64,000 bases of DNA. Source: Escherichia coli (lineage in GTDB: Bacteria > Pseudomonadota > Gammaproteobacteria > Enterobacterales > Enterobacteriaceae). Made by a program: the position numbers and the translations under genes. Within the stretch, counting starts at the first letter, position 1. Every line of letters begins with the position of its first letter. The stretch is taken from the NCBI RefSeq assembly GCF_024700885.2, contig NZ_CP117016.1, one strand, 5' to 3'. Shown piece after piece: positions 54,972-64,000 of the stretch. A model generated the notes under the pieces. That model did not search any database and had not been told where the DNA came from. It saw only the letters and a list, made by a program, of their open reading frames with translations.

Positions 54972-55076
54972 ATGAGTGCAATAGAAAATTTCGATGCCCA
55001 TACGCCCATGATGCAGCAGTACCATTTTTCTATGGTTAACCTGTTGAAATTTAGCAATAAAGTGTTTGGTAAGTAG
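54972..55076 (+). pseudogene. mutS: mutS 5' fragment: first 17 codons of DNA mismatch repair protein MutS, then out-of-gene sequence and a stop
   Basis: ATGAGTGCAATAGAAAATTTCGATGCCCATACGCCCATGATGCAGCAGTA encodes MSAIENFDAHTPMMQQY (MutS N-terminus); after 55022 the sequence turns AT-rich and non-MutS (HFSMVNLLKFSNKVFGK-stop). Confidence 0.85.
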
Positions 55077-55365
55077 ACTCTGGTTTACTGATGGTATACA
55101 TAACATATAGTTATGTTAGCCAAGAACTCGAACTTAATGTGCCTAACTACAGAATGAAAAGTAACGTTGCGATACCGAAAAAATTTGGTGGCGTAAGGAA
55201 GGAATTGAAGTTCATTCATCTCCGTGAATATCTAAATCAATTTAATAACCAATTAAATAATTAGCTGGCTACAAATAACATTGATCTAATTCAATAATTT
55301 AGGATTATGTATTGGAGCTATTGAAAAAGTTGTGTTATAAAGGAAAAAAATCAAGGGAGATTAAA

Positions 55366-55635
55366 ATGTCTATCGATATCAATAAGTTAAAATCAAAATT
55401 AATTGAAGATTATAAATTCGCTGACGAGATTAGCGATGATGAAATCAATATAGTTTTAAGTGAAATACACAAAAAGGGTGCCTCAACACCAAAAGAAGTA
55501 GACGAAATTGTCTATACGGTATTAGAGGGTAAAAGGCATTATGCTTTCGAAAGTCTGGATACATCCAATACTACATCCCTTGCATTACAGTTAATTCAGG
55601 CGGCAAAGGTATATGCTCAAACACAAGGAAGATGA
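55366..55635 (+). CDS. hypothetical small acidic protein (89 aa), first gene of island cargo cluster
   Basis: SD agggaga 6 nt upstream of ATG 55366 (track ORF 55312..55635 is the same frame); no recognisable motif. Confidence 0.5.
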   Translation: MSIDINKLKSKLIEDYKFADEISDDEINIVLSEIHKKGASTPKEVDEIVYTVLEGKRHYAFESLDTSNTTSLALQLIQAAKVYAQTQGR

Positions 55636-56401
55636 AAGCATTCACATAGAGAGTAAAAAAAAACTTGATATGGAATTGCAGTTTTTAATAGATGAGATGC
55701 AAGCTGGGAAGGATAAAAACACTATTCTTCCACTGTTGAATAAACTGCAATTACAGTTTTCGATCTATGTTACTGATTTTGAAAATTTCATCGTTCGAGT
55801 TTCAGAAAATGGGTATTATCGTTCAAAAGGTGAAATAAAAGATGTTTTAATTAGCGTAGAAAATTTTTTAAATTCAAATGCAGTTGTTGCAGAAGCAATA
55901 AATACAGTTTCAAGCATATTCAATTTACCCCAATGTTATCAAGAAGGAAATTTCATAACAACTGCTCAAATAATATTAAGAACACATCAGAAAGAAAAAG
56001 CCGAGGAATTATCTCAAATTTATAAGGATAAAGGATTATCAACAAATGGCTTTGATAGTAAAGAAAAAATTTATTTGAACAGACACGGGTTTGATATGAC
56101 CAGATTTATTTCGTTTATATTAGGATTAATTTGTATACTTTATTTTTTATATGAATACAATATAGGCAATATAAACAATGGTATAAGTTGGTTTAATTAT
56201 AGATTGTTTGTTCCAACTGGATTAGGAGCAATAATATTTTCACTATTTCCGACAACCATGCAATTAAAATTTAGAGCAGGAGTGACAGCCACTGGAATTG
56301 TCGCATTTATTATATTTTTTTATACTGTCAATCCAGCAAAAGTTCCTGATTTTCAACTTCATAATATTGATAGCAATCAATCATCAGAAAAAAACAACTG
56401 A
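55613..56401 (+). CDS. hypothetical membrane-anchored protein (262 aa): about 170-aa soluble N-domain plus about 3 C-terminal TM helices
   Basis: ORF overlaps the upstream gene by 23 nt; hydrophobic segments FISFILGLICILYFLY, LGAIIFSLF, GIVAFIIFFYTV; alternative start ATG 55670. Confidence 0.6.
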   Translation: MLKHKEDESIHIESKKKLDMELQFLIDEMQAGKDKNTILPLLNKLQLQFSIYVTDFENFIVRVSENGYYRSKGEIKDVLISVENFLNSNAVVAEAINTVSSIFNLPQCYQEGNFITTAQIILRTHQKEKAEELSQIYKDKGLSTNGFDSKEKIYLNRHGFDMTRFISFILGLICILYFLYEYNIGNINNGISWFNYRLFVPTGLGAIIFSLFPTTMQLKFRAGVTATGIVAFIIFFYTVNPAKVPDFQLHNIDSNQSSEKNN

Positions 56402-56448
56402 TATCCAAGCGGATATCAGTTTAGATCTTAAAAGGAAAAAAATCCAAA

Positions 56449-56943
56449 GTGAAATTTATAGCATATGCGTTCTTGTCATTTACTATCGCACCAATAATTG
56501 GCATAATTATTGGAATTCCATTTGATAAATACTTACTCAAAAACTATCCAGTAGTTCTTTTCACAGTAATAATTATTTTCTCGTCCTTAGGAATCTACTC
56601 TCTTTACTTGTATAAAAAATCATACAAATATGTTAATGATGCTGTTTTAGCTATCTTTACTGGTTGGGTTGCATTGACATACTTACTCACGGGAGAAAAA
56701 ACAAGTGAGATAATCCCCTCGGAGAAACTAATTGAAACACACCCATTAATGTATTATCTAATAATATTAAAATTAACTATTGTTGCAAATGGGCTTTTGG
56801 CTAAGATATTTATTACATTAAACGAATTATATCATGCTCGTAAAGCTGAAAACAAAAGTGGGAAATATACTGATGTTTTAAAAATGACTATTTCCAGCAT
56901 TAAATCTTTTTTTAATTCTCAGAAGGACGGAGTCAAAAAGTAG
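56449..56943 (+). CDS. hypothetical integral membrane protein (164 aa, about 4 TM helices)
   Basis: GTG start; hydrophobic segments throughout; weak RBS. Confidence 0.5.
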   Translation: MKFIAYAFLSFTIAPIIGIIIGIPFDKYLLKNYPVVLFTVIIIFSSLGIYSLYLYKKSYKYVNDAVLAIFTGWVALTYLLTGEKTSEIIPSEKLIETHPLMYYLIILKLTIVANGLLAKIFITLNELYHARKAENKSGKYTDVLKMTISSIKSFFNSQKDGVKK

Positions 56944-57093
56944 AACAACCCCCATAGGAATTATTAATGCATTCATTGAAATAATAGCAGCAAAAACCAC
57001 TGCTAAATAATCATTCTTTGTGTCATAAAACAAAAACACAACAATATTTAAAAATAACACAAAGAGATAAAAAAGCATATCTTTAATATTCAT
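56878..57093 (-). CDS. hypothetical small hydrophobic protein (71 aa, 2 TM helices)
   Basis: Strong SD aaggagg 5 nt upstream of ATG (MNIKDMLFYLFVLFLNIVVFLF...); 3' end overlaps the convergent 56449..56943 ORF by 66 bp. Confidence 0.5.
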   Translation of the reverse strand: MNIKDMLFYLFVLFLNIVVFLFYDTKNDYLAVVFAAIISMNALIIPMGVVLLFDSVLLRIKKRFNAGNSHF

Positions 57094-57689
57094 AACAGCC
57101 TCCTTTTTTCTAATTTGATAATTTACAAATATCTTAATATAACGAAAAGTCAACTTACCCGATAAAAAATAGTTATTAGAACACCTTAAACTGATAATTA
57201 CATTAATAAATGCGAGTGATGAAATTTTTGAGTGAGATCATAAATTGTTGAGGCGTAAAGTTGTTGATATACCTGCTGTTCTGGTAAGTACTGCCATAAT
57301 AAAGGGCTGGTCTCCATCTGGTTTACTGCTTATATTTGTAGCTATGCTACTTAAGTGCTCTGTCGTTATATTGGGTATACATAATGCCCAAAAATCATTA
57401 TCGGATATTATTGAATCATCTAATAAGACGATGATTTTATTCACGAAAGATAATGCCAATGATGATGACGAAGCATTAACCAACCGTATTAATCAGATCA
57501 CAACCGAAGCTTTAACCAAACTCAGTAATAAAAAAGTTGATGCTGAAAAAACCTTGAATAAGCTCTAATGGTTGATTTTCATTGGTGTATCAGTCTGGTC
57601 TATGTTTGTTTTATATCAATTCAAAGATAACATAATCCCAGTTATTGAATTCGCCTATGAGCATATAAAGAGTTTCGTTACTTATTTAT

Positions 57690-57760
57690 TAAGCAAGGGC
57701 TAACTCATCGAAGCTCCGCTTCTTTGAGTTCCCTTGTTTTTCGCCCTTCGGTTGAAAAAG
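57690..57760. promoter_or_regulatory. candidate origin of transfer (oriT): nested inverted repeats upstream of mobC
   Basis: gcaagggctaactc ... gagttcccttg arms flanking the gaagc-tcc-gcttc hairpin, followed by cgcccttcgg; position matches oriT placement in mobC-mobA modules. Confidence 0.4.
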
Positions 57761-57784
57761 AAAGTCAAAGTCTAACCTAACTCA

Positions 57785-57812
57785 TTGACATGAATTGCAT
57801 TTCCACTATAAA
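57785..57812 (+). promoter_or_regulatory. sigma-70-like promoter for mobC-mobA
   Basis: -35 ttgaca (57785-57790), 16-nt spacer, -10 tataaa (57807-57812); strong SD aaaaaggag before mobC ATG. Confidence 0.5.
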
Positions 57813-57876
57813 TATATAATGTGTTGCAAAGGAATTGCTTACTTTAAAGCGAATAAAAATATAAAAAGGAGTTTAT

Positions 57877-58260
57877 ATGGGTAAAATAATAACATTGTCG
57901 TATACAAATAATTTTAAGCCTATTAGCGATAATAAATCTCAATCATTGCGAATACACTGTGTAAGTGTACGATTAAATAAAGAAGAGTTAGAGCTTCTCA
58001 ATGCAAGCCGTGGTGATAAACGCAAAGGTGAATGGCTTCGCATGGCATCACTTCAAAAGCTTCCTCCGACCATTCCTACAATCAATTTAGAAGTTTGGCA
58101 ATCATTGTCTGATATATCTCAAAAGCTAAACCGTCTAATAATCCACCTTGATACTAAAAGCAGTAATAGTGAACTGACGAAAACAGAGATCTTCGCTGTT
58201 AAAAAGCAGATTAAAGAGCTTCGCTCATGTCTTACAGGTTCTGATCCGTCCGTAAGGTAG
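57877..58260 (+). CDS. mobC: MobC-like relaxosome accessory protein
   Basis: 127 aa; segment VSVRLNKEELELLNASRGDKRKGEWLRMASL resembles the conserved MobC core (VRLxxEE...L...A); immediately upstream of the relaxase. Confidence 0.7.
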   Translation: MGKIITLSYTNNFKPISDNKSQSLRIHCVSVRLNKEELELLNASRGDKRKGEWLRMASLQKLPPTIPTINLEVWQSLSDISQKLNRLIIHLDTKSSNSELTKTEIFAVKKQIKELRSCLTGSDPSVR

Positions 58261-58268
58261 TTATTCGC

Positions 58269-59450
58269 ATGAAAGGAATGCAGAAGATCAAAAGGGGTAA
58301 GAGCTTCTCAGGTGTGGTTCTCTATGTGTTAAAGCCAGGCTCACACCATAGAACCGTTCCAGAAGTAATTGGTGGCAACATGACAGGTGATTGCTCACAA
58401 GAGTTAATCGACGAATTTAACCTTACGAAAGAGCTTCGCTCAGATGTGGCAAAACCTGTTTGGCACAATTCACTTCGATTACCCCAGGGAGAATCTCTTA
58501 CCAACGAACAATGGAAACGAATTGCTGACGATTACATGAAGCGAATGGGGTTCGGTGATACACACCTCCGTTGCTATGTTCTTCATGATGATCAGGCTGG
58601 TCAGCACATACACATTATTGCAAGTCGCATAGATCTCAATGGCGGGAAGCTCTACTTGGGTAGGAACGAAAACCTCATCAGCACCCGCATAATCAGTGAA
58701 CTCGAATTCGCTCATGGTCTGACAGTGACCAAGACAGCCTCTTCAATTGCACCAAAGCAACCGAAGCGGAAGAGAATCTCTCGCAACGAACAGATGCTAT
58801 CAGAACGAACTGGTGTTCCCTGCCCCAAGAAGTCCCTTCAACAGATCATAGATAAAAGTTTGGCAGATACACCTGACCTTTTAACTTTTATCAAGAGGCT
58901 GGAAGAAGCAGAAGTAGGCTGGACGGCGAATGTCGCAAGCACAGGTAAAATGAACGGGTTCTCTTTCGAATACACAGGAATAGCTTTCAAAGCTTCCCAG
59001 TTAGCCAAGAGCTATTCATGGGCAAATCTTCAAAAGCAGCTTAACTACAACCCGGATCACTTAGAAGCTCTGCGAAAGGATATACAGACCAAGGAAGTTC
59101 CTGCTCCTGTTCCTGTTCCTGTTCCTGTTCCTGTTCCTGTTCCTGTTCCTGTTCCTGCAGAACCGATAGCAAGAACGGCCGCCCAGATCGAAAGCATAAG
59201 TGAAAAAATTGCCGAACTGGAACTACGACTCAAAGAAGACAGAAGAAACGAAATCGTAGAAAAGATTCTTCAAAAGAATGCAGCCAAACAGCAAAAGCAT
59301 CTCAGGCTCACCGGCTGGATTCCCTTTTTACAACGGCTCATAGAGCTTCTCAGAAAATATGGAAGGAGCATCCTCCACAAGGTTCCTACAAACTTCTTAG
59401 AAGTCTATTCAACCCATCATCTGAAACCTACAAGAAAAATTCGTTTATAG
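58269..59450 (+). CDS. mobA: MobA/VirD2-type HUH relaxase (mobilisation nuclease)
   Basis: 393 aa; N-terminal Tyr region KSFSGVVLYVLK; three-His motif HDDQAGQHIHIIASRID; coiled-coil C-terminus. Confidence 0.85.
   Translation: MKGMQKIKRGKSFSGVVLYVLKPGSHHRTVPEVIGGNMTGDCSQELIDEFNLTKELRSDVAKPVWHNSLRLPQGESLTNEQWKRIADDYMKRMGFGDTHLRCYVLHDDQAGQHIHIIASRIDLNGGKLYLGRNENLISTRIISELEFAHGLTVTKTASSIAPKQPKRKRISRNEQMLSERTGVPCPKKSLQQIIDKSLADTPDLLTFIKRLEEAEVGWTANVASTGKMNGFSFEYTGIAFKASQLAKSYSWANLQKQLNYNPDHLEALRKDIQTKEVPAPVPVPVPVPVPVPVPVPAEPIARTAAQIESISEKIAELELRLKEDRRNEIVEKILQKNAAKQQKHLRLTGWIPFLQRLIELLRKYGRSILHKVPTNFLEVYSTHHLKPTRKIRL
59100..59159 (+). repeat. hexanucleotide tandem repeat: 8 perfect CCTGTT units (59106-59153) flanked by CCTGCT and CCTGCA
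   Basis: Encodes PAPVPVPVPVPVPVPVPVPA linker inside the relaxase. Confidence 0.95.
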
Positions 59451-63881: not shown

Positions 63882-64000
63882 TTCTTGATCTATGAATTCA
63901 TTATTTAACTCATAATGTTTTATTATAAAATACTTTAAACTTTCAACATGTGTATAGCTTATTTTATAATATGCATTGTAAAATCTATTTAGTAATCCAT

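Follow-up and report, generated by a model that had tools for sequence, protein, structure and literature searches.

Evidence for a rare but conserved gene of a predicted small membrane protein that overlaps a convergent neighbor in an Escherichia coli island

Genomic setting and features of the locus

The stretch under study (positions 56449 to 57093) belongs to a 64,000-nucleotide segment of an Escherichia coli chromosome (hereafter termed the window, to which all unmarked positions refer) and carries two convergent open reading frames (ORFs) that run into each other tail to tail: a plus-strand frame of 164 codons with a GTG start and a minus-strand frame of 71 codons, whose standing as a gene is the main subject of this analysis. 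The window leads from hyc/hyp, fhlA (51715-53829), a TOBE-domain gene and ygbA into an AT-rich island, with the GC content falling from ~52% to ~30% near position 54950. Its DNA is identical in E. coli MLI114 (NZ_CP117013) and CFSAN061761; in MLI114, the AT-rich segment forms an island of ~18 kb between ygbA and mutS with a cargo of a MobC-like gene, a relaxase gene, several tyrosine recombinase genes, two tRNA genes and a nuclease/helicase pair. The stretch itself was present in 2 of 5,426 complete E. coli genomes with one copy per genome, i.e. it is a single-copy locus. Related loci are cited by L numbers; the coordinates of the features are compiled in Table 1.

The 71-codon frame extends from an ATG at 57093-57091 to a stop codon at 56880-56878 and encodes the sequence MNIKDMLFYLFVLFLNIVVFLFYDTKNDYLAVVFAAIISMNALIIPMGVVLLFDSVLLRIKKRFNAGNSHF; its Shine-Dalgarno (SD) sequence AAGGAGG is separated from the start codon by the 5-nt spacer CTGTT. 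These elements and the 66-bp overlap with the opposite frame had been described in an initial annotation of the window and were confirmed from the sequence and the ORF list; its rating of the ribosome-binding site as the best of the cluster is fair, since AAGGAGG occurs just twice in the 9 kb of AT-rich island within the window (both on the minus strand). A structured 5' untranslated region that hides the SD sequence was considered and rejected: the 5' region folds no better than shuffled sequences (z=0.28) and the site is therefore not sequestered. The two transmembrane (TM) helices postulated for the product correspond to two hydrophobic segments in Kyte-Doolittle windows (approximately residues 6-24 and 29-53). 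From the charge distribution (N-terminus MNIKD, loop DTKND, basic C-terminal tail RIKKRF), a two-TM hairpin is predicted, with cytoplasmic N- and C-termini and a short periplasmic loop. It showed no similarity to the 164-aa protein or to the 262-aa protein encoded upstream of the latter, so that no internal duplication is involved.

Table 1. Positions of the genes and sequence features at the locus within the window.
Feature	Position	Strand	Evidence
71-aa coding sequence	56878..57093	-	ORF, homologues, dN/dS, hydropathy
Shine-Dalgarno sequence AAGGAGG	57099..57105	-	Sequence; equivalents in relatives
164-aa gene, four predicted TM helices	56449..56943	+	RefSeq WP_032230115.1; dN/dS; hydropathy; low-confidence AF2 helices
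66-bp two-strand stretch	56878..56943	.	ORFs; length variation; syn/nonsyn counts
Conserved upstream pair (89-aa gene 55366-55635, 262-aa gene 55613-56401)	55366..56401	+	Synteny in every related locus
TTGACT box, -35-like	57148..57153	-	Upstream alignment of 7 loci
Terminator-like hairpin, 11-bp stem + T7	56396..56421	-	Scan; relatives
107-aa RefSeq "hypothetical protein" (WP_175091074.1), 3' remnant of the 419-aa gene	57245..57568	+	blastn against L005-L008; gene maps

Conservation of the 71-codon reading frame

The exact 71-aa sequence was found in public protein sets on 128 E. coli contigs as "putative membrane protein" or "hypothetical protein", and a search of 5.8 billion proteins yielded relatives at 96% (Klebsiella variicola), 92%, 77% and 63% identity. 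The frame is open in homologues of 96%, 65% and 63% identity and broken in Proteus, L013 and L017/L018; in the DNA alignment, it is free of insertions and deletions in three deep lineages (the E. coli/Klebsiella group, L005/L014, and Pectobacterium L002/L003). Coding statistics were calculated for the 50 codons outside the overlap, with relatives 63-65% identical in protein sequence (L005/L014, Pectobacterium). The pairwise differences at the first, second and third codon positions amounted to 15/2/18, 14/6/25 and 12/6/21, and the ratios of non-synonymous to synonymous substitution rates (dN/dS; Nei-Gojobori method) to 0.34, 0.22 and 0.20. Over the three lineages, the variable sites were distributed as 20/7/29 among the codon positions (chi-square p=0.0014), i.e. 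substitutions follow a period of three and spare the second positions; the five other frames scored worse or contained stop codons, and the opposite strand is without an open frame. The SD sequence and ATG are retained in the lineages with an intact ORF, the purine-rich equivalents of the former being AAGGAG in Proteus, AGGAG in Pectobacterium and GGTGG in L005. At the protein level, conservation is concentrated in the loop and second helix (N27, D28, Y29, L30, S39, N41, P46) and in the tail (R63, F64, G67, N68); the loop motif KNDY and the residues S39, N41 and P46 within the second helix are invariant. As far as can be judged from sequence, such a pattern is that expected of a functional membrane protein that is translated.

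The family is small: a profile search of 1.84 billion representative proteins recovered two clusters only, both belonging to the 71-aa family, and the protein is thus no fragment of a larger one. A degenerate DNA pattern for the core KNDYLAV..FAAI.SMNALI gave no match in the collections of genome and metagenome contigs; the same pattern is present in the window and in 13 retrieved loci, of which one, L017 (JGI metagenome), was missed by the collection scan.

That the frame is untranslated, being either a chance ORF in AT-rich DNA or the bearer of a signal from an RNA or regulatory element, might be argued from its length (at least one ATG-initiated ORF of at least 71 codons arose in 27% of 3-kb shuffles of the local AT-rich sequence), from the missing call by the annotation pipeline PGAP and from its frameshifts in several lineages; however, the sparing of second codon positions, the low dN/dS in this frame only, the retained SD sequence and ATG, and the invariant polar residues of the second helix render this explanation highly improbable. 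The ORF length by itself is weak, non-significant evidence, and it is the conservation that carries the case. Thus, the 71-codon ORF very probably represents a genuine, conserved but rare gene, and its product is predicted to be a small inner-membrane protein.

The 164-codon partner gene and the overlap

The 164-aa protein contains three strong and one weaker hydrophobic segment according to its Kyte-Doolittle profile, from which four TM helices are predicted. Outside the overlap, its frame has dN/dS values of 0.08-0.25 and a distribution of variable sites among the codon positions of 40/19/69 (p=4e-7); by these measures, it is evidently a real gene under purifying selection. A weak Ion_trans match of the protein, which reached an i-E of 7e-4 at best in a single member, is regarded as compositional.

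RefSeq/PGAP calls only the 164-aa gene in this region. Among five E. coli assemblies with identical DNA in this stretch (L019 versus L020-L023, positions 3781-4745), one carries the call of the 164-aa gene and four that of the 71-aa gene, while none has both; standard annotation drops the 71-aa gene on account of the overlap with its neighbor. The alternative raised in the initial annotation, a single real ORF out of the two, has to be rejected: both are under purifying selection outside their common stretch. The locus provides an evolution-backed case of a real small membrane-protein gene dropped by RefSeq in favor of an overlapping neighbor, and the way in which annotation pipelines treat overlaps conceals a real gene in each of these assemblies. 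Antisense-overlapping gene pairs of E. coli with long, embedded overlaps have been backed by ribosome profiling (PMC9927249); the present pair resembles them in having two coding frames on opposite strands of which annotation keeps one, but differs in that only the last 22 codons overlap and both genes are supported outside the overlap.

The shared 66 bp comprise the last 22 codons of each gene and specify the basic cytoplasmic tails of both proteins. A tail-to-tail overlap is present in every lineage, with a length that varies from 66 bp in E. coli, Klebsiella and Proteus to 90 bp in L005/L014 and ~54 bp in Pectobacterium. Within the overlap, the comparison of the window with L010 gave synonymous/non-synonymous changes of 0/5 in the 164-aa frame and 3/2 in the 71-aa frame; summed over three comparisons, the counts were 9/28 and 15.7/24.3, respectively. 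The tail of the 164-aa protein thus appears weakly constrained, and because of this and of the lineage-dependent length, the overlap itself is probably incidental and no functional device. The four-TM gene would simply continue along the antisense strand of the small gene up to the first stop codon, which is easy since the Lys codons AAA/AAG are the antisense of the Phe/Leu codons TTT/CTT.

A near-palindrome, AGCATTAAATCTTTTTTTAATTCT, lies within the overlap at 56896-56919. It results in an I-K-x-x-F-N motif in both proteins (IKKRFN in the 71-aa and IKSFFN in the 164-aa protein) and could form a weak AU hairpin in both RNAs.

Association of the two genes in related loci

The order of the genes is constant in E. 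coli, Klebsiella, Proteus, Pectobacterium and metagenomic contigs: the 89-aa, 262-aa and 164-aa genes on one strand are followed by the convergent 71-aa gene. The 164-aa and 71-aa genes co-occur in every lineage that has either of them. A joint exchange is seen in L015/L016, the most distant locus type, with a 262-aa homologue of 64% identity: instead of the two genes, these loci contain an unrelated 193-aa gene together with a convergent 51-aa ORF. Furthermore, the pair survives deletions of neighboring genes in the window, L010 and L002. Because of their joint replacement, the 164-aa and 71-aa genes rather likely behave as one exchangeable two-gene cassette. It is situated in the accessory region of rare integrative, mobilizable Enterobacterales islands.

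The substitute in L015 (3155-3884; likewise in L016) is a different tail-to-tail pair at the same position, with a soluble 193-aa gene product, a non-membrane 51-aa ORF product and an overlap of 8 bp.

The state of the two genes differs among the lineages (Table 2), whereas neither the 89-aa nor the 262-aa gene is disrupted in any of them; the cassette is therefore more expendable than its neighbors. The small gene is broken beside an intact partner in L017/L018, and none of the six lineages displays a clear state with an intact small gene and a destroyed partner. This distribution fits a harmful small protein, but it is circumstantial and six lineages prove nothing.

Table 2. State of the two cassette genes in the six lineages.
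Lineage	164-aa gene	71-aa gene
E. coli/Klebsiella group	Intact	Intact
L005/L014	Intact	Intact
L017/L018 (two independent samples)	Intact	Frameshifted
Proteus mirabilis (45+ contigs)	Disrupted by deletions of 12 bp and 1 bp	Disrupted by two deletions of 1 bp
L013	Disrupted	Disrupted
Pectobacterium	Frame lost at a C-tract of 10 or 12 C (11 = in frame)	Open; aligned start is ATT, with an ATG two codons on

The C-tract of Pectobacterium was located on the strand of the four-TM gene at L002 6416-6425 and L003 2564-2575, with the two loci out of frame in opposite directions. The C-terminal part of the four-TM protein is still under purifying selection in Pectobacterium (dN/dS 0.08 in comparison with the window). 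The tract (Pectobacterium aroidearum) could reflect phase variation or an assembly error. In L013 (2860-2900), a tandem triplication of the 9-bp unit TTATTCTTT adds six residues to the first TM helix of the small-ORF homologue, which also exhibits a frameshift in a T-run near its 3' end; the contig is short and metagenomic, and a sequencing error is possible. In L005 (2342-2479) and L013 (2647-2784), a hydrophobic 45-aa ORF (MSTIL.FN.YDLCQKMH...) precedes the small ORF on its strand. It was set aside as a candidate gene because it is closed in the other lineages, the window retaining a truncated similarity in the minus-strand ORF 57198-57317.

Transcription signals

A consensus scan called no intrinsic terminator on the plus strand between the stop codon of the 164-aa gene and position 57710, nor, in the relatives that have kept the next plus-strand gene, any ahead of that gene. 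On the minus strand, a weak AT-rich hairpin directly past the stop codon of the small ORF (56849-56879) is not conserved. The next terminator-like hairpin follows ~460 nt further, just upstream of the 164-aa start; relatives have kept a shorter stem and the T-run, with compensatory changes in 2 of 7 pairs, although the scan did not call the hairpin in L019. Possibly, it marks the end of a minus-strand transcript that would begin at the small gene. The TTGACT box 54 nt upstream of the ATG resembles a -35 element: TTGAC is kept in 7 loci while its surroundings diverge, and no convincing -10 partner was found for it. The genes of the block for the 89-aa, 262-aa, 164-aa, NA37-family and 419-aa proteins, MobC and the relaxase are co-oriented, and the small gene is the lone opposing unit.

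Because no terminator of its own was called near either gene, opposing transcripts would, if both sides are transcribed, be expected to overlap by far more than the 66 bp shared by the coding sequences. Interference by collision has been reported to be frequent in bacteria (PMC10349824). Convergent transcriptional interference between the two genes is accordingly rated as plausible from the arrangement of the DNA signals, with a chance of about one half.

Proteus loci contain tandem repeats of an 8-bp unit, TATAATTT, in the short stretch that separates the small ORF from the divergent NA37 gene, with six (L006 6443-6490), four (L008 1707-1738) or three copies (L004 4-27); the unit is present as a single copy in L007 and in the window (~57115-57130). 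Each unit contains a perfect plus-strand -10 hexamer and the array may act as a variable promoter spacer.

Proposed function of the gene pair

Database comparisons offered little guidance. With the 71-, 164-, 262- and 89-aa proteins as queries, NCBIfam, PHROGs, PADLOC and Pfam yielded nothing meaningful except a match of the 262-aa protein, which has a C-terminal TM region, to phrog_5814 (E=2.5e-10), a PHROG without assigned function; the PADLOC defense models matched none of the four module proteins. The best PHROG match of the 71-aa protein (E=0.54) is likewise a family without assigned function and none was a holin or lysis PHROG. An Rfam search of positions 54900-58000 at E<=1 gave no match, and a sequence search of solved structures (PDB) nothing credible. 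The 71-aa protein had no tblastn match in 50,697 phage records and none in plasmids; for the 262-aa protein, one weak plasmid match was obtained, and no relatives were detected in scans of viral contigs (IMG/VR) or genome contigs. The literature was also searched for the island family (PmGRI1, nucleoid-associated, relaxase) and yielded nothing relevant.

As a tentative overall explanation, with slightly less than an even chance of being correct in all its parts (a real small gene, a cassette, interference, and a shared membrane process), the following is proposed: The small gene and the four-TM gene would form a tail-to-tail cassette downstream of the 89-aa/262-aa pair. Polymerases and transcripts from both sides would meet, since neither gene seems to have its own terminator, and high expression of one gene would lower that of the other via polymerase collision and cleavage of double-stranded RNA. 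Both proteins would act in the same membrane process, with the small protein as a dosage-sensitive or harmful partner and the four-TM protein as its target, receptor or protector. If expression of the two membrane proteins is indeed mutually exclusive, the pair would offer a simple system for the study of transcriptional interference.

Several points weigh against this explanation. A contact or functional link between the 71-aa and 164-aa proteins is pure inference, and neither protein can be connected to a known function through homology or fold; the structures predicted by AF2 for the 164-aa and 262-aa proteins are of low confidence (mean pLDDT 48.5 and 45.5, respectively), although the former does contain helices. 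The exchange of the cassette was seen in a single divergent locus type (L015/L016) only, and no promoter upstream of the small ORF passed the consensus scan. Concerning the pattern of losses, the state in Pectobacterium is ambiguous and the table comprises six lineages; the recurrence of frameshifts in four of these six could mean mere dispensability, and some of the frameshifts, being situated in homopolymer tracts of short contigs from metagenomes, could be sequencing errors.

Alternatively, the two ORFs may be unrelated membrane-protein genes that merely abut each other, with low and independent expression and an overlap resulting from stop-codon drift in AT-rich DNA. The variable length of the overlap and the poorly constrained 164-aa tail would agree with such a situation, as would the loss of either gene alone (that of 71 aa in L017/L018, that of 164 aa in Pectobacterium through the C-tract). 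However, the genes are always found together and were replaced together in L015/L016, and without a called terminator between them fully independent transcription is physically unlikely; this explanation is therefore regarded as rather unlikely, if still worth consideration.

The layout had been compared with that of small membrane toxins in the initial annotation. In its specific form, this reading assumes a type I-like system: the 71-aa protein would be a membrane-damaging toxin, repressed through the complementary 3' portion of the 164-aa mRNA or through an unrecognized small antisense RNA from that strand, and the pair would serve the island as an addiction or abortive-infection module. 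Characterized type I toxins are usually smaller than 60 aa with one TM helix, and the type I toxin-antitoxin pairs bsrG/SR4 and txpA/RatA of Bacillus subtilis and par (Fst/RNAII) of Enterococcus are examples of an overlap at the 3' ends. The locus resembles these pairs and yonT/SR6 in its convergent 3' overlap and in the presence of a small, very hydrophobic ORF with a strong SD sequence on a mobile element; no terminator is called in the adjoining stretch on either side, the gene is retained in decayed remnants of the island, and it has been inactivated recurrently by frameshift, once with its partner intact. Furthermore, the opposite-strand transcript would be complementary to the 3' part of the small ORF, as in 3'-overlapping toxin-antisense pairs, for which RNA-RNA pairing and degradation are expected; such pairs are known in Bacillus, e.g. 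yonT/SR6 with a 58-aa YonT (PMC5848175), and have been defined in general terms (PMC6563280).

The differences from these systems are nevertheless considerable. The product has 71 aa and two hydrophobic segments; the complementary strand is occupied by a conserved protein-coding gene under purifying selection in place of the small RNA of 100-200 nt known from such pairs, although an unrecognized small RNA might also be encoded there; no RNA family was matched in Rfam, and no toxin family in Pfam, NCBIfam, PHROGs or PADLOC, so that by these searches the protein does not belong to Hok, Ldr, Ibs, Sho, TisB, Fst, TxpA, BsrG or other known toxin families. The strong SD sequence is not sequestered, the locus is single-copy, and in Pectobacterium it is the partner that has lost its frame, with the small ORF still open. 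The likeness to a small membrane toxin consequently found no support in size and helix number, in the partner or in any of the family searches, and a type I-like toxin is considered unlikely. Toxicity of the 71-aa protein as such is possible, yet it remains doubtful. Even less probable is a new type of membrane toxin-protector pair, in which the gene of a two-helix toxin would be silenced, through convergent transcription, by the coding mRNA of its partner and the four-TM protein would in addition neutralize or receive the toxin in the membrane; if true, type I-like control by RNA would be combined with immunity at the protein level, with island addiction or the exclusion of phages as a possible role.

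Class II holins and pinholins (S68/S71 of phage 21) and the Imm protein of T4 are proteins of ~70-83 aa with two TM helices and a charged cytoplasmic C-terminus. A holin- or pinholin-like protein or a phage-derived superinfection-exclusion protein would agree with the ~70 aa, the two TM helices, the predicted N-in/C-in topology and the basic C-terminal tail, with the superficially dual-start arrangement of M1 and M6 around K4, and with the labeling of the 89-aa neighbor as "phage protein" by some submitters and the PHROG match of the 262-aa protein, but the resemblance ends there and this origin is a very remote prospect: there is no holin or lysis match in PHROGs or Pfam, no hit in the phage records or plasmids and no relative of the module in IMG/VR, no endolysin or spanin gene adjoins (the small ORF is flanked by the 164-aa gene and by what is left of the NA37 operon), and the first TM helix is strongly hydrophobic, unlike the small-residue-rich one of class II holins and pinholins. 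The dual-start motif itself was rejected, since M6 is not conserved (I in L005, A in Pectobacterium).

The proposed tail-to-tail cassette with mutual interference finds partial counterparts among other bacterial systems. Excludons are defined from long antisense untranslated regions in RNA-seq data; the present locus shares with them and with convergent transcriptional interference in general the opposed orientation of two genes and the lack of a called terminator between them, whereas its transcript overlap is predicted from DNA only. AcrZ, MgtS, KdpF and CydX are small inner-membrane proteins that bind larger ones, mostly single-helix and encoded co-directionally, often in the same operon. 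Like these, the 71-aa protein is small, hydrophobic, missed by annotation and encoded beside a co-occurring larger membrane-protein gene; in contrast to them, it has two helices and is encoded convergently. A role as a small subunit or modulator of the four-TM protein is equally conceivable for it.

The present value of the findings lies mainly in a corrected annotation and a testable hypothesis and not in a surprise: a tiny orphan family is tied to a four-gene module in mobilizable islands of E. coli, Klebsiella, Proteus and Pectobacterium, and its cassette might prove to be a new addiction or exclusion module.

Neighboring genes and further features of the island

The cassette is usually followed by a divergent NA37-family gene and then by the 419-aa gene. 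In the window, ~2 kb including the NA37 (YejK-like nucleoid-associated) gene have been lost at a deletion scar at ~57268-57273, as likewise in L010 from Klebsiella. In Klebsiella and related loci (L010 8243-12216, L014 2589-6226, L017 1-3906), the module adjoins an HxsD-like gene, two radical-SAM genes (His-Xaa-Ser type) and a DUF6119 gene, a neighborhood that suggests a hotspot of accessory cargo.

The relaxase gene of the window (58269-59450) contains eight perfect copies of CCTGTT at 59106-59153, which encode a (Pro-Val)8 linker. From 60895 to the end of the window at 64000 and onward (L001 20896-25509), a minus-strand block of genes for a 137-aa and a 548-aa protein is followed by two adjacent tyrosine recombinase genes, an arrangement that recalls the multi-recombinase (GInt/RIT-like) modules of islands; the 548-aa protein had no NCBIfam match, and the first recombinase matched the model "integrase_1" with E=1.5e-47, which is under the cut-off of the model. 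Past the window, the same island (L001 25682-32656) includes genes for tRNA-Asp and tRNA-Val, followed by a pair annotated as ATP-dependent nuclease and UvrD-like helicase (Gabija-like by annotation) and by an integrase gene that adjoins mutS.

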